DNA of 38,128 nt from Candidatus Omnitrophota bacterium (lineage in GTDB: Bacteria; Omnitrophota; Gorgyraeia; Gygaellales; Profunditerraquicolaceae), in NCBI GenBank assembly GCA_016867095.1, contig VGKK01000002.1, forward strand, positions 1-38,128. The letters run 5' to 3'. The translations under genes and the position numbers were made by a program. Positions within the stretch are counted from its first letter, which is position 1. The number at the start of each line of letters is the position of its first letter. The notes under the pieces were generated by a model. That model did not search any database. It worked only from the letters and a program-made list of their open reading frames with translations, and had not been told where the DNA came from. Below, piece by piece: positions 5,439-17,093 of this stretch.

Positions 5439-7418
5439 ATGAAAAGTAGAATTATTGGCATATTAGGCGAAGACGGAGTTATCTCGCGGGCGCTTAGCGG
5501 TTATGAGTCAAGGCCGGAACAGATCAAAATGGCCGAAGCAGTGTGCGAGGCAATTGAATGTGGAAAACATCTCTTAGTCGAGGCAGGTACCGGCATCGGG
5601 AAAAGTCTGGCGTATCTGGTGCCTTTTATAATTCATGCGGTAGAAGGCGAAAAGAAAATAGTTATATCAACCAACACAAAAACACTTCAACAGCAATTAT
5701 GTCAGAAGGATTTGCCGTTTCTAAAAAGATCTCTGGGGATAGAGTTTGATTTTACCTTATGCCTGGGCAGCGAGAATTATCTCTGCAAGAGGCGGCTTAA
5801 CAGCAGTTTTACTTATGATCTCTTTGAAACCGATGCGCAAGCCGAAGACTTAAAGAAAATCATGGCATGGTCAGAGCGTGCAGAAAGGGGTATTAAGTCA
5901 GATTTAGAATTCGTTCCGAGAGGCGGGGTTTGGGATAATGTATGCAGGGATCCGGATTTATGCATTGGTAATAAGTGCCATTATAATAACGGCTGCTTTT
6001 ACAGGAAGGCAAAAAGCGCGCAGAAGAATGCGCACGTTCTTATTGTGAACCATTCGCTTTTCTTTACGAATTTATCCGCAGGCGGCCAGGTTCTTCCGCA
6101 GTTTGACGCCGTAGTTTTTGATGAGGCCCATACGCTGGAAGAGGCCGCGGCAGGGTGTCTCGGTTATGAAGTCAGCAATACCCAGGTAAAATACCTGCTT
6201 GATTCGATATATAACTCTAAGACGAAAAGAGGCTTATTGTCTAAGTTCAAGCGGGCGAAGCATCAGATAGGCGTCATACAGCATAGATTGGAAGAGGCAA
6301 GGACCGCTGCTATGCAATTTTTTAACGCTGTTTCTGAGAAATTTGGCAGTCAAAGCGATGTTAAGAGGATACGAACTGCGAATATCATTTATAACTATTT
6401 AGACGAACCGCTAAAAGGGTTGACGGAAGCCATAAAAGGCTTAATTGATTGCGTTAATAAGCAAGAAGATGAGGTTTTGTTAAGGTTCTATGTCAAAAGA
6501 TGCATCGGCCTGAGGGCATCGCTTGAATTTATATTGAGTCTTGAGGAGAAGGCGGATTACGTTTACTGGGTTGAAGTGGCAGCGCGCCGCCGCGGCATAA
6601 AATACTCACTTTTGGCAAGCCCTATAGAGATAGCCGAAGAGCTGGATAATCAGCTATTCAGTATCATTAAGCCGGTAGTTTTAACTTCCGCCACGCTCGC
6701 TGTTAATAATAATTTCAGTTTCATAAGAAAACGCCTGGGTATAAAGGACTGCATAGAAGCGCTGTTGAATTCGCCTTTTGATTATAAAAAGAACGTCACT
6801 CTATATTTGCCGAGGAATATAGCCGATCCCGGCAACGATCAGGAATTGTTTCTCCAACAGGCGCTGGAGCATATCAAGCGGATAATAGATGTTATGGGAG
6901 GTAGGACATTTATCCTCTTTACCAGCTTTCGGATGCTGAATTTTATAAGCAAAGAATTGAAGAGTAACTATAAAGATATTCTTCTTCTGCGGCAAGGCGA
7001 GCGTCCCCGTTACACTCTCCTTGAAGAGTTTAAGAAAAATTCTAACGCTGTTTTACTTGGGACTAACAGCTTCTGGCAGGGCGTAGACGTTCCAGGCAGG
7101 GCGCTTGAGTGCGTGGTGATAGCTAAGTTACCGTTTTTAGTGCCGGATGATCCGATTACAGAAGCCAGGACGGAGTTAATAGAGTCGCGTAATGGCAATC
7201 CTTTTACGGAATATCAGATCCCCCAGGCAATAATGATGTTCAAGCAGGGCTTCGGCAGATTGATAAGGAACAAGACCGATAGAGGAGTAGTAGCGGTTCT
7301 TGATCCAAGGATTTCAACAAAATATTACGGTAAATCTTTCATAAATGCCATACCGGAATGCGGGCATATTTATGATATTAACGATATTAAGGAATTTTTC
7401 AAAGCAGCCTGCCCGTGA
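5439..7418 (+). CDS. dinG: DinG/XPD-family ATP-dependent DNA helicase (Fe-S type)
   Basis: 659 aa with Walker A AGTGIGKS, a DEAH box (VVFDEAHTLEE), and a 4-Cys cluster region (CLGSENYLCKRR ... CRDPDLCIGNKCHYNNGC). The C-terminal helicase motifs are GTNSFWQGVD and QGFGRLIR. Confidence 0.85.
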   Translation: MKSRIIGILGEDGVISRALSGYESRPEQIKMAEAVCEAIECGKHLLVEAGTGIGKSLAYLVPFIIHAVEGEKKIVISTNTKTLQQQLCQKDLPFLKRSLGIEFDFTLCLGSENYLCKRRLNSSFTYDLFETDAQAEDLKKIMAWSERAERGIKSDLEFVPRGGVWDNVCRDPDLCIGNKCHYNNGCFYRKAKSAQKNAHVLIVNHSLFFTNLSAGGQVLPQFDAVVFDEAHTLEEAAAGCLGYEVSNTQVKYLLDSIYNSKTKRGLLSKFKRAKHQIGVIQHRLEEARTAAMQFFNAVSEKFGSQSDVKRIRTANIIYNYLDEPLKGLTEAIKGLIDCVNKQEDEVLLRFYVKRCIGLRASLEFILSLEEKADYVYWVEVAARRRGIKYSLLASPIEIAEELDNQLFSIIKPVVLTSATLAVNNNFSFIRKRLGIKDCIEALLNSPFDYKKNVTLYLPRNIADPGNDQELFLQQALEHIKRIIDVMGGRTFILFTSFRMLNFISKELKSNYKDILLLRQGERPRYTLLEEFKKNSNAVLLGTNSFWQGVDVPGRALECVVIAKLPFLVPDDPITEARTELIESRNGNPFTEYQIPQAIMMFKQGFGRLIRNKTDRGVVAVLDPRISTKYYGKSFINAIPECGHIYDINDIKEFFKAACP

Positions 7419-7430
7419 GCAATAGAATAA

Positions 7431-7478
7431 CTCTTGCCAAGTGTTGGTTGAAATTCCGGCCGGCGGAGGTTTTTGTGT
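7431..7478 (+). terminator. Probable terminator downstream of dinG
   Basis: ctcttgcc..ttgg / ccgg..ggcggagg forms an imperfect stem followed by tttttgtgtttt. The 3' half (ggccggcggaggtttttgtgtttt) is nearly the same as in the folC terminator. Confidence 0.4.
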
Positions 7479-7497: not shown

Positions 7498-7526
7498 TTG
7501 ACTTCGACCTGCAATAGGGTTAAAAT
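7498..7526 (+). promoter_or_regulatory. Sigma70-like promoter upstream of mod
   Basis: TTGACT (7498-7503), a 17-nt spacer, then TAAAAT (7521-7526), about 38 nt upstream of the mod ATG. Confidence 0.35.
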
Positions 7527-7563: not shown

Positions 7564-9669
7564 ATGAAATTGACGGATAATGAAATAAGAAACATTACAA
7601 AATATCTGGAATCGGGAAAACCGCTTCCTGATCAGTATCGTTTCCTGCTTTTTGAGGAAAAACGCGAGGTAGAGCTGGTTTGGAACGGCAAGACCAGTGA
7701 AGTCTGCAACGCGATATTGCCGTTCCAGGTGATTGAGCAGGTTGATGAGCCGCGCAAGGAGAAAACGCAGGCCGAGTGGCAGGGGACGTTATTTGACACA
7801 AGCGGACGCCAGATCAAGGGTTGGACAAATAAGCTTATCTGGGGTGATAACAAATTGATCTTGAGCAGTCTTAAGAACGGGCCTCTGCACGATGAGATAG
7901 AAAAAGATGGCGGAATAAAGTTGATCTATATTGATCCGCCGTTTGACGTCGGCACAGATTTTTCCATGAATATTGAAATCGGCGATGAGCAATTTACCAA
8001 AGCGCCATCAGTGTTGGAAGAGATCGCATATCGGGATACCTGGGGAAAGGGCGCGGATAGTTTTATCGCCATGATTTATGAGCGGCTAACGCTGATGCGG
8101 GATTTATTGGCGCAAGATGGAAGTATTTATGTGCATTGCGATTATAGAGTTGATTCTTATATTCGGTGTATTCTAGATGAACTATTTGGTAAGCCAAATT
8201 TAAGAAATGAAATTATTTGGTGTTATACGGCTCCGTCAAATGTGTCCGGAAATTATCCGCGTAAACACGACGTTATTTATTTCTATTCGAAAAGCTCTAA
8301 GGTTACTTTAAATTTAGATGACATTAGAATTCCTTATTCTGCAGAAAGTCTTAGTCGTGCAAATCGGAATGTGATTAAGAAAGGCGGAACAATATTTGAT
8401 GACGTTAAATTAAATGATAAAGGGAAGGTGCCAGAAGATTGGTGGGCAGATGTTAATCCGGCATCTCGTTATCCGACAGAACATTTAGGTTATGATACCC
8501 AGAAATCCGAAAAACTTCTAGAACGGATTATTAAAGCTTCTTCAAACGAAGGAGATATTGTAGCCGATTTCTTTTGCGGCTCCGGGACAACTATGGCAGT
8601 GGCCGAGAAGTTAGGGCGAAAATGGATCGGCGCTGACCTTGGCAAGTTTGCCATTCATACGACGCGCAAGCGGATGATTTCGGTTCAGCGCGAGCTTAAA
8701 GAAGCAGGCAAGGATTACCGCGCGTTTGAGATCTTAAACCTCGGGAAATATGAACGCCAGCATTATATCGGCGTAAACCCGAATTTGCGGGACAAGGAAA
8801 AAGAGAAACAACTTGCCAAGCGTGAGAAGGAGTTCCTTGAGCTTATTCTTCGGGCTTACCGTGCTGAGAAAGCTGAAGGATTCAAAACGCTGCACGGAAA
8901 GAAATCCGGCCGAATGGTTGCGGTCGGGCCGATCAATTTACCGGTAACGAAAGATTTTGTTGATGCTGTTATAAACGAATGCATAGAAAAGAAGATTACA
9001 AAAGCAGATATACTGGCTTTTGAATTCGCGATGAGTGTTATTTCTACCGAGAAGACCAGAGAAAATAGGGTAATTCAAGAAGAAGCCAAGTCAAAAGGTA
9101 TTGACCTTGCCCTGAAGTATATCCCCCGGGATGTCTTTGACAAGCGCGCAGTGGAGAAGAGCCAGGTTGTTTTTCACGATGTGTCTTATATTGAGGTTAA
9201 GCCGATCGTTCAAAAGAAAGGCGCGGCCGTTGAGCTGGTAGATTTCAGCGTTTATTACAATCAGGATACCATCGCTAATGTTGAGGCATCGCTTAAGAAC
9301 GGCGGGACCAAGATTTATGTTGAGAACGGCAAGATCATCAAAGTTACCAAAGATGAGAAGGGAATTATAAAGCGAGAAGCCTTGACTAAGAAATGGACGG
9401 ACTGGATTGATTACTGGGCAATTGATTTTGATTTTGAAAGCAAAAAAGAAATTGTCCGGGTCAAGAAAGATAACGGCTCGGTTGAAGAAGCCTGGACCGG
9501 CGACTATGTTTTTGAGAACGAATGGCAGTCTTTCCGCACCAAGAAAGACCGGACAATCGAGCTCAAAAGCGCATTCCATGAATGCCCCAAAGGCCGCCGC
9601 AAAATCGCGGTTAAAGTGGTGGATATATTCGGGAATGATACAATGAAAGTGATTGAGGTCAATATATAG
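7564..9669 (+). CDS. mod: Type III restriction-modification DNA methyltransferase (Mod, beta-class N6A/N4C)
   Basis: 701 aa. Motif IV IYIDPPFDVG lies upstream of motif I FFCGSGTTMAVAEKLGRKWIGADL (order IV-TRD-I). The N-terminus is LLFEEKREVELVWNGK...LPFQVIE. The gene sits in an operon with a res helicase-nuclease. Confidence 0.9.
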   Translation: MKLTDNEIRNITKYLESGKPLPDQYRFLLFEEKREVELVWNGKTSEVCNAILPFQVIEQVDEPRKEKTQAEWQGTLFDTSGRQIKGWTNKLIWGDNKLILSSLKNGPLHDEIEKDGGIKLIYIDPPFDVGTDFSMNIEIGDEQFTKAPSVLEEIAYRDTWGKGADSFIAMIYERLTLMRDLLAQDGSIYVHCDYRVDSYIRCILDELFGKPNLRNEIIWCYTAPSNVSGNYPRKHDVIYFYSKSSKVTLNLDDIRIPYSAESLSRANRNVIKKGGTIFDDVKLNDKGKVPEDWWADVNPASRYPTEHLGYDTQKSEKLLERIIKASSNEGDIVADFFCGSGTTMAVAEKLGRKWIGADLGKFAIHTTRKRMISVQRELKEAGKDYRAFEILNLGKYERQHYIGVNPNLRDKEKEKQLAKREKEFLELILRAYRAEKAEGFKTLHGKKSGRMVAVGPINLPVTKDFVDAVINECIEKKITKADILAFEFAMSVISTEKTRENRVIQEEAKSKGIDLALKYIPRDVFDKRAVEKSQVVFHDVSYIEVKPIVQKKGAAVELVDFSVYYNQDTIANVEASLKNGGTKIYVENGKIIKVTKDEKGIIKREALTKKWTDWIDYWAIDFDFESKKEIVRVKKDNGSVEEAWTGDYVFENEWQSFRTKKDRTIELKSAFHECPKGRRKIAVKVVDIFGNDTMKVIEVNI

Positions 9670-9673
9670 TTTT

Positions 9674-9727
9674 TCTATAGGGAATATATGAGAAAATCGC
9701 CGCATCTATAGAAAATATATGAAAAAT
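9674..9727. repeat. Two ~23-bp direct repeats in the mod-ATPase spacer
   Basis: tctatagggaatatatgagaaaat (9674-9697) and tctatagaaaatatatgaaaaat (9705-9727). They end 12 nt before the ATG at 9740. Confidence 0.7.
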
Positions 9728-9739
9728 AGGGGGTGATAT

Positions 9740-11254
9740 ATGAAAAAGAGTTCTTATGGAAAAAATTTGTTCGGACTTCATTTGAGCCAGGAATTGGAAG
9801 ATTTCCTTAGAGATACAAACCCTTGGTGGAGTGGTAAACCTATGCGGCGGCTTCCGGAATTCCGCCGCTGGCTATTTGATCACACTTTACAACGCTTAAA
9901 AACAGGGCTTGCCCCTGTGATCGTTTTGCGCGGCCCGCGTCAGGTGGGCAAGACAACATTACAAGAGCAGATCATTCTTCATTTATTAAGCCAAGAAAAT
10001 GTTGATCCTAAAAATATTTTTCGCGTTCAATTTGACGAGATCCCTTCCCTGAAAGGATTAAAAGACCCTATTTTAAGCATATGCCGCTGGTATCAGGAAA
10101 GGATTTTAGGAGAAACATTTAATGAATCAATAAATAAAAACCGGCCGGTCTATATTTTTTTTGATGAAGTGCAGAATTTGACGGATTGGTCTCCTCAGAT
10201 TAAATCGTTAGTCGATCTGCATTCCGTAAGAATTCTTTTAACCGGGAGCTCGGCGCTGCGAATCGAACAGGGGCGGGACAGCCTTGCAGGCAGGATCACA
10301 ACTTTAGAGCTTGGAACGCTTCTGTTAAGGGAAATCGCGGAATTGCAAAATTTCGAGAAAATTGTCCCTATGATTGTGTTAAATGGATTAAAGGAATTGA
10401 CACAGAAAGATTTTTGGGCGGATGTTCGGACAAACGGCGAGAAATACAAAGAAGTGCGTGATAAAGCATTCAATCTATTTTCTGAACGGGGAGGTTACCC
10501 GGTTGCCCAAGTGCGGATAGACAGGCCATGGGGAGAAGTTTCCGATCAGCTCAATGAAACAGTTATAAAACGCGTTATTCAACATGATTTGAGGATCGGG
10601 GAGCGGGGAAGGAAGCGGGACCAGGATTTACTAGAAGAGCTTTTTCGTTTATGCTGCAGGTATATCGGTCAAGCTCCCGCACAGGCCATGTTTATTACAG
10701 AACTGCGCAAGCCTTTATCCGCTAACGTGGGCTGGAACAGGGTCTTGGCCTATTTAAGATTTCTCAATAATACGCTGTTGATTAGATTGATAGATCCGCT
10801 TGAAATTAGAATTAAAAAAAGGAAAGGCCGCCCGAAAATTTGTCTTTGTGACCATGCATTGCGCGCAAGCTGGCTGCAGGAGTTAATCCCGTTTTCTCCG
10901 CAAGGATTAGCTTCTGCCCCGCATTTAAGCGATCTGGCCGGGCATATTGCGGAAAGCGTGCTTGGATATTTTTTGGCAGGCATTCCCAATCTTGACGTGG
11001 CTTGGTTTCCAGAGCGCGCCGATGAGCCCGAAGTCGATTATGTCGTTTCTGTCGGAGAATTTAGGATTCCTATTGAAGTGAAATACCGAAGACACATTGA
11101 TTCTCATAGGGATACCATAGGACTGCGCTCATTTATAGAAAAAACTGTTTATAATGCTCCTTTCGGCATATTGGTCACTTTAAATGACGATACGATTATC
11201 GATGATCCAAGAATTGTCACCGTGCCTTTGTCGTCATTTTTGCTTCTTCGGTAA
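9740..11254 (+). CDS. AAA+ ATPase of the COG1373 type (AAA_14 plus a DUF4143-like C-terminal PD-(D/E)xK-like domain), embedded between mod and res
   Basis: 504 aa with an NPWW motif, Walker A GPRQVGKTT, Walker B IFFDEVQN, and a C-terminal EVDYVV...IPIEVK (D...ExK) pattern. Confidence 0.8.
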   Translation: MKKSSYGKNLFGLHLSQELEDFLRDTNPWWSGKPMRRLPEFRRWLFDHTLQRLKTGLAPVIVLRGPRQVGKTTLQEQIILHLLSQENVDPKNIFRVQFDEIPSLKGLKDPILSICRWYQERILGETFNESINKNRPVYIFFDEVQNLTDWSPQIKSLVDLHSVRILLTGSSALRIEQGRDSLAGRITTLELGTLLLREIAELQNFEKIVPMIVLNGLKELTQKDFWADVRTNGEKYKEVRDKAFNLFSERGGYPVAQVRIDRPWGEVSDQLNETVIKRVIQHDLRIGERGRKRDQDLLEELFRLCCRYIGQAPAQAMFITELRKPLSANVGWNRVLAYLRFLNNTLLIRLIDPLEIRIKKRKGRPKICLCDHALRASWLQELIPFSPQGLASAPHLSDLAGHIAESVLGYFLAGIPNLDVAWFPERADEPEVDYVVSVGEFRIPIEVKYRRHIDSHRDTIGLRSFIEKTVYNAPFGILVTLNDDTIIDDPRIVTVPLSSFLLLR

Positions 11255-11263
11255 AAACAGTTT

Positions 11264-13939
11264 ATGGCCATACATCCAAAATTACCTAAGTCACCTTACG
11301 AAATAATTAAACCTGAATTACGCTGGTTCCCGGCTGATGAGATGCTGCGGGAAAAGGGCTACGATAAGCTTCTGCCGCCTTTAGTCGCTAAACTACGCAA
11401 GCTGGTTGAGGCATGGCGAAACTCTGGTTATGACGGCGCAAGCGCCACGAGCAAGGCGCTTCTCAATTGGTGGTTTAAGACCGACCACCCCAAGTATAAC
11501 GCGGATGGCGAAGAGTATCTTTTTCAATATTATTTTGCTCAACGAGAATCGGTGGAAACGATTATTTATCTTTATGAAGTCGCCAGGATCGAAGATAAAT
11601 ATGACCTCCTGCGGTTTGACAGCTCCGGGATCTTGACGCCGGGAATGTTTGCGGAAGACTGGCGCCGGTTTGTGATCAAAATGGCCACGGGCAGCGGAAA
11701 AACAAAGGTCCTTAGCCTTGTTTTAGCCTGGAGCTATTTCCATAAAATGTATGAGACCGATTCTATGTTAGCGAGGAATTTTCTTGTTATTACACCCAAT
11801 ATTATCGTGTTAGACCGTATCAAAGCGGATTTTGACGGTTTGAAGATATTCTTTGATGATCCCGTGGTGCCGGAGAATGGTTATGCCGGGCAGAACTGGA
11901 AAGATGATTTTCAGGTTACGCTCCATATTCAGGACGAGATCGGAACCATTGGAAAAACAGGCAATATTTTTCTTTCTAATATCCACCGTGTTTATGAGAG
12001 CGGCGATGTTACGCCCTCTTTTGATGATGTGGATACGTCGGATTACTTTCTCGGTAAAAAACCGGTCGGCGCGACAAATGAATCAAAGATCGATCTTTCC
12101 GAGATCGTGCGAAATGTTGATGAGCTGGTTGTATTAAATGACGAAGCGCACCATATTCACGATGAAAAACTCGCCTGGTTTAAATCTATAGAGGATATTC
12201 ATAACCGCCTAAAGATGAAAGGTTCTGAGCTGTCGCTCCAGGTGGATGTAACCGCCACACCGCGGCACAATAACGGCGGTATATTTGTCCAGACGGTTTC
12301 CGATTACCCGCTTGTTGAAGCGATCCATCAGGATGTTGTGAAACACCCTCTTGTTCCGGATTCGGCCAGCCGGGCTAAGCTGGTTGAAAAGAAGAGCTCA
12401 AAATATACCGAGAAATATGAGGATTATATTCATCTTGGTTACCTTGAATGGAAAAAAGTCCATGAAGAGCATTCAAAACTTGGCAAGAAAGCCGTCCTAT
12501 TTATTATGACCGATGATACGCGTAATTGTGATGAGGTCGCGGCATACCTGGAGGGAAGATACCCGGAATTTAAAGAGGCGGTTTTGATTATTCATACCAA
12601 AAATAACGGCGATATCGCAGAGAGCGTAACCGGTAAAAAGAAAGAAGAACTGGATGTTTTGCGCGAAGCGGCCAATAAAATCGACCGGCCGGATAATCCG
12701 TATAAGGTTATAGTTTCGGTTCTAATGCTGAAAGAAGGCTGGGATGTCCGCAATGTAACGACAATTGTCGGGCTTCGGCCTTATTCGTCGGCAAGCAATA
12801 TTTTGCCTGAGCAGACCATGGGGCGGGGTTTGCGCCGGATGTATCGCGACGCAAATCTTCAGGAAATGGTCAGCGTTGTCGGGACGGATGCTTTTATGGA
12901 TTTTGTAGAATCGGTAAAAAGTGAAGGCGTTGAACTTGAACATCGCAAAATGGGCGAAGGAAGTGCCCCTAAGGCGCCGCTTGTTGTTGAGGTCGATAAA
13001 GAAAATTTGAAGAAAGATATTGAGAAGCTCGATATTCAAATTCCTGTATTAACCGCTCGTATTTATCGCGAATATAAGAATCTTTCTATTCTCAACGTGA
13101 GCGATTTTGGCCATGCAAAGGTTAAAGTCCGGCAATTTTCCGAAGAAGAAAAACGCGAGATCGTTTTTAAAGATATCGCATCCGATGAAATATCTCATAA
13201 AACCGAGCTGGATTCTGATTTTACAGCGAATTATCAAAGTGTGGTCGGATATTTTACTCAGGTCATTATGAAAGACCTGAGGTTGGTGGGCGGGTATGAT
13301 ATCCTCTATGGCAAGGTAAAAGAATTTATCCAGAATTATCTCTTTGAGAATGTCGTAAATTTAGAAGATCTGAACATTCTTAGGAATTTGTCCGAGCTCG
13401 AAGCCACCAAAACCATAATCGAAACTTTTAAGCGAAAGATTAACGATCTTACCGTTCTGGACAAGGGGGAAGCAGAGATCAAGGATTACATAAAAATAAG
13501 CCAATGCCGCCCCTTTGTAGTTAAAGAGCAGGGTTATCTTATGCCTCAAAAGAGCGCGTTTAATAAGATAGTGGGGGACAGCCATTTTGAACTTGAGGTA
13601 GCAGCTTTCTTGGAGAAATGCGATGATATTATTTCATATGCGAAAAATTATTTTTCTGTCCACTTCAAGATAGATTACCGTGATGCCGATGGTGAGATAA
13701 AAGATTATTATCCGGACTTCTTCGTAAAATTCTCGCAGAATGATCTCTATATTGTTGAAACAAAGGGCCGTGAAGACCTAGGTGATCCTCTTAAAATCGC
13801 CCGCCTCAAACAATGGTGCGAAGACGTGAATAGAGCGCAAAGCGATGTAAAATGCCGCTGTCTTTATATCAAACAAGAGCAGTTTGATAAATATAAGCCG
13901 CAAAATTTCTCGGAAGTAATAAAGAATTTCGCGCCATAA
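11264..13939 (+). CDS. res: Type III restriction enzyme Res subunit (SF2 helicase plus C-terminal PD-(D/E)xK nuclease)
   Basis: 891 aa with Walker A MATGSGKT, a DEAH box (LNDEAHHI), and helicase motifs LKEGWDV and QTMGRGLR. The C-terminus has YYPDFFV...YIVETKG. It starts 9 nt after the ATPase gene. Confidence 0.9.
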   Translation: MAIHPKLPKSPYEIIKPELRWFPADEMLREKGYDKLLPPLVAKLRKLVEAWRNSGYDGASATSKALLNWWFKTDHPKYNADGEEYLFQYYFAQRESVETIIYLYEVARIEDKYDLLRFDSSGILTPGMFAEDWRRFVIKMATGSGKTKVLSLVLAWSYFHKMYETDSMLARNFLVITPNIIVLDRIKADFDGLKIFFDDPVVPENGYAGQNWKDDFQVTLHIQDEIGTIGKTGNIFLSNIHRVYESGDVTPSFDDVDTSDYFLGKKPVGATNESKIDLSEIVRNVDELVVLNDEAHHIHDEKLAWFKSIEDIHNRLKMKGSELSLQVDVTATPRHNNGGIFVQTVSDYPLVEAIHQDVVKHPLVPDSASRAKLVEKKSSKYTEKYEDYIHLGYLEWKKVHEEHSKLGKKAVLFIMTDDTRNCDEVAAYLEGRYPEFKEAVLIIHTKNNGDIAESVTGKKKEELDVLREAANKIDRPDNPYKVIVSVLMLKEGWDVRNVTTIVGLRPYSSASNILPEQTMGRGLRRMYRDANLQEMVSVVGTDAFMDFVESVKSEGVELEHRKMGEGSAPKAPLVVEVDKENLKKDIEKLDIQIPVLTARIYREYKNLSILNVSDFGHAKVKVRQFSEEEKREIVFKDIASDEISHKTELDSDFTANYQSVVGYFTQVIMKDLRLVGGYDILYGKVKEFIQNYLFENVVNLEDLNILRNLSELEATKTIIETFKRKINDLTVLDKGEAEIKDYIKISQCRPFVVKEQGYLMPQKSAFNKIVGDSHFELEVAAFLEKCDDIISYAKNYFSVHFKIDYRDADGEIKDYYPDFFVKFSQNDLYIVETKGREDLGDPLKIARLKQWCEDVNRAQSDVKCRCLYIKQEQFDKYKPQNFSEVIKNFAP

Positions 13940-14031
13940 CAGACAAGCCCTAACCCGCATTGTCAAGGTGCCTTTTTTAGGGTGCCTTTTTAGTTTTAGA
14001 AAACTAGGTACATTTTAATGAAAGAAATACT

Positions 14032-15483
14032 ATGCAAAATATAAATTTAACCGATACTATTGCCGCTGTGGCCACCGCCGTCGGAGAATCCGGCATCGGG
14101 ATCGTGCGGATAAGCGGCAAGGACGCCTTAAGGGTAGCGGATAAGATTTTTCTTTCTAAGGACGGCAAGAGGGCTTCTACTTTTAAGGCTTATACCACGC
14201 ATTATGGATGGATTGTTAGTCGGTTATCCGGTAAGCCGGTAAGCCGGTTAGCCAGTTTAAGCCGGCACACCGGCACACCGGCACACCGGCACACCGAAAT
14301 AATTGATGAAGTTCTCTTGACGGTGATGCGCGGCCCAAAAAGTTATACCAAAGAAGACGTTGTGGAAATCAACTGCCACGGAGGCATTGTGGCTTTGCGG
14401 GCGGCCTTGGATTTAGTTTTGGAAAACGGCTGCCGCCTGGCTGAGCCGGGTGAATTTACCAGGCGCGCCTTCTTAAACGGCAGAATTGACCTGGCGCAGG
14501 CCGAGGCAGTCCTGGATATTATTCGCGCCAGGACTGATTCAGCGTTAAAAATAAGCGCGGAGCAGTTAAGGGGAGGTGTATCTAAGCAGATTAATAAAAT
14601 GAGGAACCGCCTCTTGGAATTAGCTTCGCACTTAGAGGCAGATATTGATTTTCCCGGCGAGGAGCTTGATGCTGCCGGGCCTCAGCAGATTAGGGAAGGT
14701 TTGCAAGAAGTAGGCCGCCAATGCCGGGATATCCTGGAGGGGGCCAGGCGCGGCCGGATATTCCGCGAGGGCATACAGGTAGTAATCTGCGGCAAGCCCA
14801 ATGTAGGAAAATCCTCGCTGTTAAACGCGCTTTTAAAACAGGAGCGCTCTATCGTTACGCCGGTAGCCGGAACTACCCGCGATACCATTGAGGAGGTTAT
14901 TGATATTAAGGGTATCCCGGTCAGGATTGTGGATACCGCCGGGATCATTGAGCCCAGGGATTTGGTGGAAAAAAAGGCGGTCTTGCGGTCCAAAAGATAC
15001 ATAGGTTTAGCCGACCTGGTAATCCTTCTATTGGATGGGAGTAGGCCACTGGCCAAAGACGATGAAGCCCTGGCCAGAAAATTAAAAAAGAAGGCCATTA
15101 TCGCCGTGGTCAATAAAATAGACTTAAAACAAAAGATTGATAAAGGCAAAATTTTAAAAAGATTCCCGAGCGTAGTGGGAATTTCAGCCAAAAAACTAAA
15201 AAACATTGATTTATTGGAGCAGGCAATCGCTAATTTAGTCTATGCCGGAGGGCTCAGGACCCCCGAATCGGCATTAGTCAGCAACCTGCGCCATATTGAG
15301 GCGGTCAGGCACGCAGAAAAATTTATTGCGCAAGCCCTAAATTCATTAGATAATGAATTATCTTTAGAATTCATCGCCCAGGAGATAAGGGAAGCCCTGG
15401 GTTATTTGGATGAGATATTGGGCAGGAGGTTTTCGGAAGAACTGCTGGATAAAATCTTCAGCGAGTTTTGCGTAGGCAAATAG
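14032..15483 (+). CDS. mnmE: tRNA modification GTPase MnmE (TrmE)
   Basis: 483 aa. The N-terminus is [22 protein letters not shown], followed by [24 protein letters not shown]. The G domain has [13 protein letters not shown] and NKID. The terminal CVGK matches the MnmE C(I/V)GK motif. Confidence 0.95.
14221..14296 (+). repeat. Two adjacent 8-bp tandem arrays inside the mnmE reading frame
   Basis: cggttatc cggtaagc cggtaagc cggttagc (14221-14252), a 10-nt linker, then cggcacac x4 (14263-14294). The translation is [25 protein letters not shown]. Confidence 0.9.
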
Positions 15484-15492
15484 ATCTATCAG

Positions 15493-15534
15493 CTCAAGAC
15501 CCGGTCTTGAGACGGTTGGCAAGACCGGGTCTTG
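15493..15534. repeat. Twin short palindromes in the mnmE-folE spacer
   Basis: ctcaagac-ccg-gtcttgag (15493-15511) and caagac-cgg-gtcttg (15520-15534). No T-tract follows either one. Confidence 0.6.
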
Positions 15535-15548
15535 GAGGTAGGGAGGGA

Positions 15549-17093
15549 ATGGATAAGAAAAAAATTGAAAAGGCAATCAGGGAGCTGCTCGGGGCTATCG
15601 GCGATGACCCCGGGCGTAAAGACCTGCAGGCAACCCCCCGGCGCGTGGCAGAGATGTATGAAGAGATATTTTCCGGCCTGCGCCAGGACCCGCGCAAGGA
15701 ATTAGAGGTTATTTTAGACCAGAAACACGACGAAATAATTTTATTAAAGGGCATTCCCCTGTATAGTTGCTGTGAGCACCATCTTTTACCGTTTATCGGT
15801 AAGGCGCACATCGCCTATATTCCTAAAAACGGCCGCGTCACCGGCTTAAGTAAGCTCGCCCGGGTGGTGGATATTTTAGCCAAGCGGCCGCAAATCCAGG
15901 AAAGATTAACCACGCAGATTGCCGAGATTATTATGTCCAAACTTAAACCGCAGGGTTGTATGGTGGTTATTGAAGCAGAACATATGTGTTATGATGATAA
16001 AACAGAAGTTTTAACGGCTGACGGTTGGAAATTATTTCAGAATCTAAAAGAGAGCGATAAAATAGCCCAAGTAGATTCGGTAACGAGAAACCTATCATTT
16101 ATAACACCAAAAAATCCCTTTTCATATAACTATAATGGTATGATGGTAGCAATTAAAAGCTTATCCGTAGATTTGTTAGTTACACCGGACCACAGGATTT
16201 ACTATTCTTCCGAATGGGATTTTTATAATGGCCATAATAATTGGCAGATATCCCAAGCCCAGGAATTAATGAAAAGATATATAATCATTCCAAGGGCATG
16301 TAATTGGATAGGCAGTAATCCTGGAAAAATACGAATTGGGAAATATACTATAGATTTTGAATATTTTGTGCAAATTTTTGGAATTTGGGTTAGCGAAGGA
16401 TGTACAACGCAGATAGATAAGAATAGAAGAAAGTTTGTAGTTGTTACTCAGAGTCCAAAATCAAAATATTTCCTAGATATTAAGAAACTATTTAGCAAAT
16501 TGAAAGTCAAATATATTCAGTGTAAGTCCGGAAAGGCAGTTCAATTCAGGATAGAGGATGACGATTTTTTTAATTATTTTAGACAATTTGGCAAGTCCGG
16601 AGATAAATACATACCCGACGTTATTAAAAATTCGACTCAGAAGTTTTTGAGGTTATTTTTAAGTTGGTATATAAAAGGCGACGGGCATATCAAAAAAAAT
16701 AAGGCAATACATTTTGTTTCTAAATCGCAGAGACTCATGGATGATTTGCAAGAAGTTTGTATTAAGCTAGGCATAGGTTGCACAAAGCAGAACAATAAAA
16801 ATTATTTCAGAATGGAGACTCACAGAACAAAATCTGGCAAAGATAAATGGTATTCAAGGTTGAGGCCTTGTAATTTTTCACTCAGAGAATATAAAGGAAA
16901 AGTCTTTTGCGTATCTGTGCCTAAAGGGCTAATTTTAGTAAGACGGAATGGAAAGGTAGCGATATCTGGAAATTGTATGTCTATGCGGGGGGTAAAAAAA
17001 CCGGGGACACTGACCATCACTTCGGCGGTAAGAGGGGTATTTAAGAAAAACGAGAAGACCCGCGCCGAGGCCCTGACCTTGATTAAGTCGTAA
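15549..17093 (+). CDS. folE: GTP cyclohydrolase I (FolE) precursor interrupted by an intein
   Basis: ATG at 15549 is preceded by ggaggtagggaggga. The exteins read [14 protein letters not shown]...[23 protein letters not shown]...MVVIEAEHM | [24 protein letters not shown].... Joined, they total 185 aa, which is normal FolE length. Confidence 0.9.
15987..16973 (+). mobile_element. Intein (329 aa) with a LAGLIDADG homing-endonuclease domain
   Basis: Block A is [14 protein letters not shown] (Cys1) and block B is VTPDH. The two dodecapeptide motifs are [13 protein letters not shown] and [15 protein letters not shown]. The C-terminus is VFCVSVP...[14 protein letters not shown] followed by a +1 Cys. 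GC falls to ~27% (16/60 at 16081-16140) versus 58% (35/60 at 15841-15900) in the N-extein. Confidence 0.85.

Follow-up and report, generated by a model that had tools for sequence, protein, structure and literature searches.

Genes nested inside defense operons have been described for several prokaryotic systems. According to the main text of Payne et al. (2024, 10.1101/2024.01.29.577857), embedding occurs in Hma, BREX, DISARM and Type I restriction-modification (R-M) systems, and 96.7% of the embedded genes are co-oriented; Type III systems are not analyzed in that main text. As presented there, the PDC candidates of PADLOC go back to genes that lie within BREX, DISARM and Type I R-M systems. 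PDC-S01 is an ATPase fused to a PD-(D/E)xK domain, is widespread in Bacteria and Archaea, and has been reported as the fourth most common "defense" call in prokaryotes (PMC12988326). Here, we analyzed a 38,128-nucleotide (nt) stretch of a Candidatus Omnitrophota contig (VGKK01000002.1; this whole stretch is hereafter called the window), in which an ATPase gene of the PDC-S01 kind lies between the mod and res genes of a Type III-like R-M operon.

We propose that the mod-res junction of this operon serves as a slot for varying passengers and here holds an autonomous AAA+/PD-(D/E)xK module (PDC-S01), and we consider this explanation probable. The ATPase gene has the characters of an embedded defense module: it lies between the two core genes on the same strand, the host operon occurs with and without it, its homologs are also common outside the host, and the gene itself is not a mobility gene. 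Defense gene embedding, described for other systems, is thus seen here in Type III. As in the cases covered by the main text of Payne et al., the passengers lie between core genes, are nearly always co-oriented, are diverse and often known defenses, and also occur outside the host, which itself exists with and without passengers. In contrast to those cases, the Type III-like host has just two genes and one slot, mod|res, with an extremely tight junction. All three genes are intact and co-oriented, and the open reading frame (ORF) list reproduced exactly the coordinates and the spacers of 70 and 9 nt that an initial annotation of the window had given. The features of the trio are as follows (aa, amino acids).

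7564-9669, + strand: mod, 701 aa by ORF call, Type III-like beta-class DNA methyltransferase
7933-7944 (aa 124) and 8572-8592 (aa 337), + strand: mod motifs DPPF and FCGSGTT, from the motif check
8164-8463, + strand: variable segment of mod, probably target-recognition, ~aa 201-300, from the identity profile against relatives
9670-9739, + strand: mod-ATPase spacer, 70 nt
9740-11254, + strand: ATPase gene, the embedded passenger, PADLOC PDC-S01, 504 aa, AAA_14 + DUF4143
9818-9829, 9932-9958 and 10163-10174, + strand: ATPase motifs NPWW, Walker A and Walker B, from the motif check
10877-11251, + strand: predicted nuclease domain of the ATPase, with D433 at 11036-11038 and E446-x-K448 at 11075-11083, from motifs and model
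11255-11263, + strand: ATPase-res spacer, 9 nt, AAACAGTTT
11264-13939, + strand: res, 891 aa, SF2 (superfamily 2) helicase-nuclease
11687-11704, 12140-12154 and 13709-13768, + strand: res motifs TGSGKT, DEAHH and the C-terminal PD...ETK nuclease

The slot became apparent when relatives of the R-M pair were compared. A metagenome scan with Res gave 80 loci at 71-90% identity, 70 of which had both the mod end and the res start, and mod lay 5′ of res in every locus with both genes on the contig. The gap between the two genes was only 2-16 nt (an empty slot) in 24 of the 70 loci, whereas it measured 0.3-3.5 kb and contained one to three ORFs (a loaded slot) in 46. Every slot ORF of at least 70 aa shared the strand of mod and res. 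The passengers formed ~40 unrelated clusters, with Pfam matches to SLFN_AlbA_2+HATPase_c_4 (Schlafen/AlbA_2; 11 loci), DUF488, KTSC+NYN, HEPN, OLD-type ABC ATPase+TOPRIM, Abi_C, PIN_12, Fic, TIR_2, RhuM+Fic, DUF3800, a ClpP-like protease, M78 peptidase+DUF4411, KilA-N and DUF6864; those named by PADLOC were AriA, PtuA, GajA, Old, AbiLi, HEC-01A and PDC-S05. Approximately half of the passenger families had no Pfam or PADLOC match, and no transposase or integrase family was found among the passengers scanned. Separately, one 305-aa passenger (L082, 7082-7996), located 3′ of a HEPN protein and without a Pfam match, contains ~11 perfect tandem copies of NHNINPIF.

The state of the slot was scattered when the loci were ordered by Res similarity or placed on the Res tree. 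The group to which the window belongs (Res at least 88% identical) holds three passengers, namely the ATPase, a 179-aa protein of unknown kind, and a HEPN protein together with a repeat protein; in other tight Res groups, empty slots occur alongside as many as four different passengers. Conversely, a single passenger type, such as AlbA_2 or KTSC+NYN, recurs on distant backbones. An AAA_14 ATPase occupied the slot in none of the 70 loci, and the two closest backbones (Res 90% identical) hold other passengers. Because mod and res are adjacent in 24 of the 70 loci, the ATPase is present in none, and the closest backbones load other genes, the ATPase is a sporadic occupant that does not belong to a conserved three-gene unit, and the three-gene unit suggested by the initial annotation is not supported. 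The alternative raised there, a gene that inserted into the operon, agrees with the scattered passengers and the solitary homologs described below, as far as it means an independent module. Such a module may be a defense effector or a sensor, as the initial annotation also considered, or a purely selfish gene.

A second and more divergent sample, taken from IMG/VR contigs, comprised 14 same-clade relatives in mod-then-res order. The slot was loaded in 5 of the 14, and none contained an AAA_14 ATPase. In a cultured relative on an Aminobacter plasmid, mod and res overlap. Cultured relatives on Sinorhizobium medicae WSM419 pSMED01 and Aminobacter pANY103c could provide an empty-slot backbone. The junction is conserved in the relatives: mod ends in ...AATATATAA or ...AATATATGA, and res begins with ATGGCAYTACAT a few bases on; many passengers open with an ATG that overlaps the TGA stop of mod (ATGA). 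A conserved junction with varied passengers implies that the mod-res slot is a recombination hotspot. A divergent branch of the R-M clade (L213, L214 and L220; Res 52-57% identical) has the reversed order, res and then mod.

The R-M clade also occurs on contigs classed as viral (L200-L216, IMG/VR) and on large rhizobial plasmids (NZ_AP017989.1, NC_009621.1), with Res 52-72% identical. Because of this presence on viral-classed contigs and plasmids, we regard the clade as horizontally mobile.

Homologs of the ATPase number in the thousands. The best 120 are 65-89% identical and come, by their source names, from Desantisbacteria, Nitrospinota, Chloroflexota, Poribacteria, KSB1, Calditrichota and others; the tight clade as a whole spans many phyla at 59-89% identity. 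We compared 45 loci of this clade from a genome scan and eight further homologs with Pfam-labelled contexts. All-versus-all clustering of the ±4 neighbors at the 45 loci revealed no conserved partner gene, and housekeeping enzymes dominated a Pfam scan of 115 neighbors. Most homologs are solitary among housekeeping genes, for example between glutamate synthase and a permease (P0005), between alcohol dehydrogenase and ligA (P0013), or among ordinary genes (P0106, P0110, P0113 and P0035), and one adjoins an AbiLi/PDC-M38 pair (P0098). In a related Omnitrophota metagenome-assembled genome (GCA_041643055.1), the ATPase homolog (83% identical) is not linked to the Type III-like pair that this genome also carries. 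The clade was not found on IMG/VR viral contigs, which contained only AAA_14 relatives at 22-33% identity, and plasmids yielded only distant matches. The neighborhood survey that the initial annotation had proposed therefore gave a divided answer: although the homologs are mostly solitary, ~7 of the ~52 other contexts lie in or beside methylase-based systems, three of them Type III-like mod/res (L176, L005 and L001) and four Hma. This association is far above that of a random gene, yet it concerns a minority, and it fits the way in which the PDC candidates of PADLOC were derived. The notion that the ATPase never recurs with mod or res was abandoned once contexts at a lower threshold and with Pfam labels had yielded the three Type III-like cases.

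These cases differ in their hosts. In the four Hma loci (L019, L022, L023 and L026), the ATPase takes two positions, HmaA|HmaB and HmaB|HmaC. In L176 (2973-11094), the order is mod (split), ATPase, a further gene and res: mod is divided into ORFs of 602 and 427 aa that both match one MTase_III model, the 69%-identical ATPase overlaps the preceding MTase_III gene by 4 nt, and a 260-aa ORF related to Y1 (IS200-like) transposases lies between the ATPase and the ResIII gene. Because its Mod and Res are only 24% identical to those of the window, L176 represents an independent Type III-like family. In L005 (1879-3981), an intact 504-aa ATPase sits between a mod relic of ~40-50 codons and two res fragments, all of the L176-type family; here, the passenger has outlived its host R-M system. 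The closest homolog (L001; 87% identical) lies 88 nt upstream of a same-clade mod, the first 30 residues of which are 90% identical to Mod of the window.

Both core proteins were compared with characterized Type III enzymes. Mod matches Pfam N6_N4_Mtase (PF01555) at 5e-48 and PADLOC MTase_III at 3.5e-129 over nearly its full length, and EcoP15I Mod (4zcf_A) is matched among PDB chains at 2.6e-17. It is a beta-class N6A/N4C methyltransferase, with the DPPF motif IV ahead of the FCGSGTT motif I and a variable target-recognition domain (TRD). Compared with relatives that are otherwise 75-90% similar, its identity falls to 12-52% at aa 201-300 and to ~55% at aa 451-500 (~8914-9063), and these segments probably form the target-recognition region. 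The methylation motifs would then differ among near-identical R-M backbones. No phase-variable repeats were found in mod. Res matches Pfam ResIII (5.7e-15) and, in its C-terminal PD-(D/E)xK region, TnsA-like N (1.4e-4). It carries the motifs TGSGKT, DEAHH, TATP and PD...ETK of an SF2 helicase with a C-terminal PD-(D/E)xK domain, and K146, D293-H297, D818 and E832-K834 are invariant across 18 relatives.

The arrangement resembles EcoP15I and EcoP1I in that mod comes first, although one gene intervenes here, Mod is a beta-class enzyme with a central variable TRD that matches EcoP15I Mod, and Res is an SF2 helicase with a DEAH motif and a C-terminal PD-(D/E)xK domain. It differs in the long C-terminal extension of Mod and in Res, which matched no PDB chain by single sequence or profile. 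Res matched PADLOC REase_III only partially (8e-19, aa 281-545) and scored 272 bits against NCBIfam BPTD_3080, below the cut-off of 800. We named the pair "Type III-like" because Res is only loosely tied to characterized Type III enzymes. Type III systems are further defined by ATP-dependent cleavage, for which two unmethylated sites in inverse orientation are required, and by the methylation of a single strand.

The embedded ATPase scores 94.7 bits against Pfam AAA_14 (cut-off 27) and 45.7 bits against DUF4143 (cut-off 28.1), the two domains that make up COG1373 (PMC3424549); it also matches seven PADLOC PDC-S01 models, the best at 3.4e-35. The domain scan and the motif check confirmed the COG1373 assignment of the initial annotation and each motif that it had named: NPWW (aa 27-30), GPRQVGKTT (65-73), DEVQ (142-145) and D433...E446-x-K448; the PADLOC run that it had recommended likewise returned PDC-S01. 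Across 45 homologs, the motif residues are invariant apart from three positions, P66 and V69 (Walker A) and V144 (Walker B), each of which is retained in at least 90%. To judge from the aligned homologs, strong purifying selection acts on the catalytic residues of both the ATPase and the nuclease. The domain scan detected no transposase or integrase domain in the protein, and no solved structure was detectable from its sequence.

We modeled the full-length protein with AlphaFold2 (pLDDT score 73; pLDDT, predicted local distance difference test). Its model matched clamp-loader, ORC and PAB2304-type AAA+ proteins, with the AAA+ fold in the N-terminal part. The C-terminal 125 residues were modeled alone (pLDDT 87) because the full-length fold search matched only generic AAA+ proteins. 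With this domain, nearly all of the best Foldseek matches were PD-(D/E)xK nucleases, including Bax1, Can2, McrC, Hjc, HindIII and DdmD, and the top matches had probabilities of 0.9-1.0 and template modeling (TM) scores of 0.4-0.5. The predicted model and the conserved D...ExK residues together point to a C-terminal nuclease of the PD-(D/E)xK fold.

The domain architecture is identical to that of PDC-S01. Within PDC-S01, the protein stands apart in that its subclade is unusually conserved and carries the N-terminal NPWW motif without variation, and its host differs as well, since PDC candidates were derived from embedding in BREX, DISARM and Type I R-M and not Type III. An AAA+ NTPase and a PD-(D/E)xK nuclease are likewise paired in McrBC, which is a plausible working analogy, and the fold search with the C-terminal domain recovered McrC. 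In contrast to McrBC, the protein of the window would join both predicted activities in one polypeptide, and its ATPase is of the AAA_14, clamp-loader-ORC-like type rather than of the McrB type, which is specific for GTP. No domain for reading modifications was identified in the protein. PrrC, in the EcoprrI Type IC hsd operon, is also a nuclease-containing NTPase inside an R-M operon. However, PrrC, in which an ABC ATPase is joined by a tRNA anticodon nuclease, occurs almost only in embedded form, whereas the protein studied here consists of AAA+ and PD-(D/E)xK parts and is mostly solitary.

On these grounds, we suggest a putative mechanism for the passenger-bearing operon. The passenger would have entered by recombination at the conserved junction between the mod 3′ end and the res 5′ end, and two AATATATGA copies in the 70-nt spacer could be relics of the canonical junction. 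The trio would be transcribed together from 5′ of mod. The ATPase would be translated from its own strong ribosome-binding site, and res probably by coupling to whichever ORF precedes it, because res lacks a ribosome-binding site and lies a few bases past the upstream stop in all relatives. The ATPase may act as a second layer independent of Mod and Res: an ATP-driven oligomer would sense a nucleic acid or infection cue, and its C-terminal nuclease would then cut DNA, by analogy with AAA+/PD-(D/E)xK pairs such as McrBC. Embedding would give the ATPase co-transfer and co-expression with the R-M system.

Several points weigh against this explanation. In E. coli, a PDC-S01 representative failed to protect against T4, T5 or T7 (10.1101/2024.09.26.614923), and the ATPase of the window is only a candidate for defense. 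As most members of the clade lie away from defense genes, a non-defense or selfish role is possible. Co-transcription of the trio is inferred, since only DNA runs and no RNA runs were found to contain the locus, and translational coupling is likewise deduced from the sequence. The homolog samples are metagenomic and do not amount to an unbiased census. Finally, L001 hints at a tighter bond between this ATPase sub-lineage and this R-M system than chance would give.

The alternative that survives best is a selfish passenger, a mobile, ORF-sized element that lodges in operons, possibly by means of its own nuclease, with no benefit for defense, its insertions being merely tolerated. The identity of 59-89% across many phyla fits such an element, as do flanks that lose all conservation beyond ~20 nt of the ribosome-binding region, insertions that are always co-directional and tight, even among housekeeping genes, and the negative protection test of PDC-S01. 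However, the protein lacks any domain of a transposase or integrase, neither inverted repeats nor target-site duplications were found around the ATPase or the island, the catalytic residues of both domains appear to be under strong purifying selection, and the co-occupants of the slot are largely bona fide defense families and not mobile elements. We regard a selfish passenger as unlikely.

We further speculate that this widespread R-M clade might be specialized for carrying cargo, with just one slot, coupled translationally at the mod-res junction, by way of which defense genes would move between phyla, and that passengers such as this ATPase-nuclease might be functionally coupled back-ups that fire upon R-M inhibition or upon DNA ends made by the R-M system. 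We rate this extended version as quite unlikely.

Another alternative is a guardian device, in which the ATPase-nuclease would be functionally wired to the R-M system: Mod/Res would keep it inactive, and their inhibition by an anti-restriction protein of a phage would set it free. The gene is embedded between both subunits and would share their expression, its closest homolog (L001) again lies beside a same-clade mod, its clade recurs in methylase-based systems, and PrrC and PARIS provide precedents. Nevertheless, most members of the clade are solitary and highly conserved, unlike PrrC; the hosts of the ATPase are unrelated, comprising two Type III families and Hma at two positions; the ATPase of L005 stays intact after decay of the R-M genes; and the fold, AAA+ with PD-(D/E)xK rather than ABC ATPase with anticodon nuclease, is not of the PrrC type. 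We consider this coupling improbable. An integral third subunit, in which mod-ATPase-res would be an obligate three-component restriction system, has tight spacing, a shared strand and the lack of an internal terminator on its side, but it is already contradicted by the comparative data (no ATPase in 70 close Res relatives, 24 of which have mod and res abutting, nor in the 14 same-clade IMG/VR relatives, and overlapping mod and res on the Aminobacter plasmid) and is highly improbable.

Returning to the passenger slot as the preferred explanation, embedding itself, including near-universal co-orientation, was already known, and the window is a further instance, now with a Type III-like host. 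At a single, exact junction, approximately two thirds of the loci of this Type III-like clade are loaded with passengers. The hunting ground for guilt by embedding is thereby extended to Type III systems, and the slot passengers form a list of new candidates; this comparative result is a more useful by-product than the single ATPase case. The compact and intact operon is a convenient handle for testing PDC-S01, with the same backbone, empty or otherwise loaded, as a natural control. As a caution for annotation, genes between R-M core genes should not be read as subunits.

The boundaries and flanks of the unit are as follows.

5439-7418: DinG-like helicase gene, upstream flank, from the domain scan
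7442-7468, + strand: terminator-like hairpin 3′ of the dinG-like gene, left boundary of the unit, from the hairpin scan
7498-7526, + strand: putative promoter, the best sigma-70-like match 5′ of mod, TTGACT-17-TAAAAT, 10/12
13965-13988, + strand: terminator-like hairpin 3′ of res, right boundary of the unit, from the hairpin scan
14032-15483: MnmE gene, downstream flank, from the domain scan

The island thus lies between dinG and mnmE, as first annotated. The left hairpin was called twice, at 7442-7465 and, overlapping it, at 7454-7468, with a run of T residues after it, and the hairpin scan found no terminator-like hairpin in the 70-nt or the 9-nt spacer. A single recognizable promoter had been placed at 7498-7526. 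This site exists and is the top-scoring intergenic match of the promoter scan, but it is not the sole one: the region contains 14 promoter-like sites against 12.2 ± 3.4 in shuffles, which is no excess, and a second, weaker match (9/12) at 9643-9670 lies immediately 5′ of the ATPase gene. For both reasons, a single promoter is only an inference. The ATPase gene is preceded by a strong Shine-Dalgarno sequence, AGGGGGTGA, within the 70-nt spacer. In contrast, the 9-nt spacer before res contains none and resembles the short pre-res linker of empty-slot relatives.

The G+C content of mod, the ATPase gene, res and dinG is ~0.435, with no difference between them. An identical locus was assembled independently in several lake-water metagenomes, and therefore it is not an assembly chimera. 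The window contains no Rfam families or tRNAs.

The 70-nt spacer contains a 22-nt direct repeat (9674-9695 and 9705-9726). A 12-mer that belongs to it, ATATATGARAAA, occurs in three copies within 64 nt (9674-9747), against 0.04 expected, and is absent from the rest of the 38-kb window; two copies are inside the spacer and the third spans the ATPase start codon. The two spacer repeat copies read AATATATGA, the canonical junction of relatives in which the stop of mod and the start of the cargo overlap, and they create two mini-ORFs before the ATPase start (9688-9711 and 9719-9736; 7 and 5 codons). These repeats may be relics of past cargo exchanges, or a leader or regulatory element.

In related Omnitrophota (L172, L173 and L174), the dinG flanks carry Fic, AbiGi, E1/E2-like ThiF+Prok-E2, HTH-SocA and MNT nucleotidyltransferase genes, another N6_N4_Mtase+ResIII pair and a distant AAA_14/DUF4143 paralog. 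In this Omnitrophota lineage, the surroundings of dinG resemble a defense island hotspot. Downstream of mnmE, the GTP cyclohydrolase I gene folE at 15468-17093 (called as 15549-17093 in L168) contains an intein, because its GTP_cyclohydroI match falls in two stretches around a LAGLIDADG_3 homing endonuclease domain.

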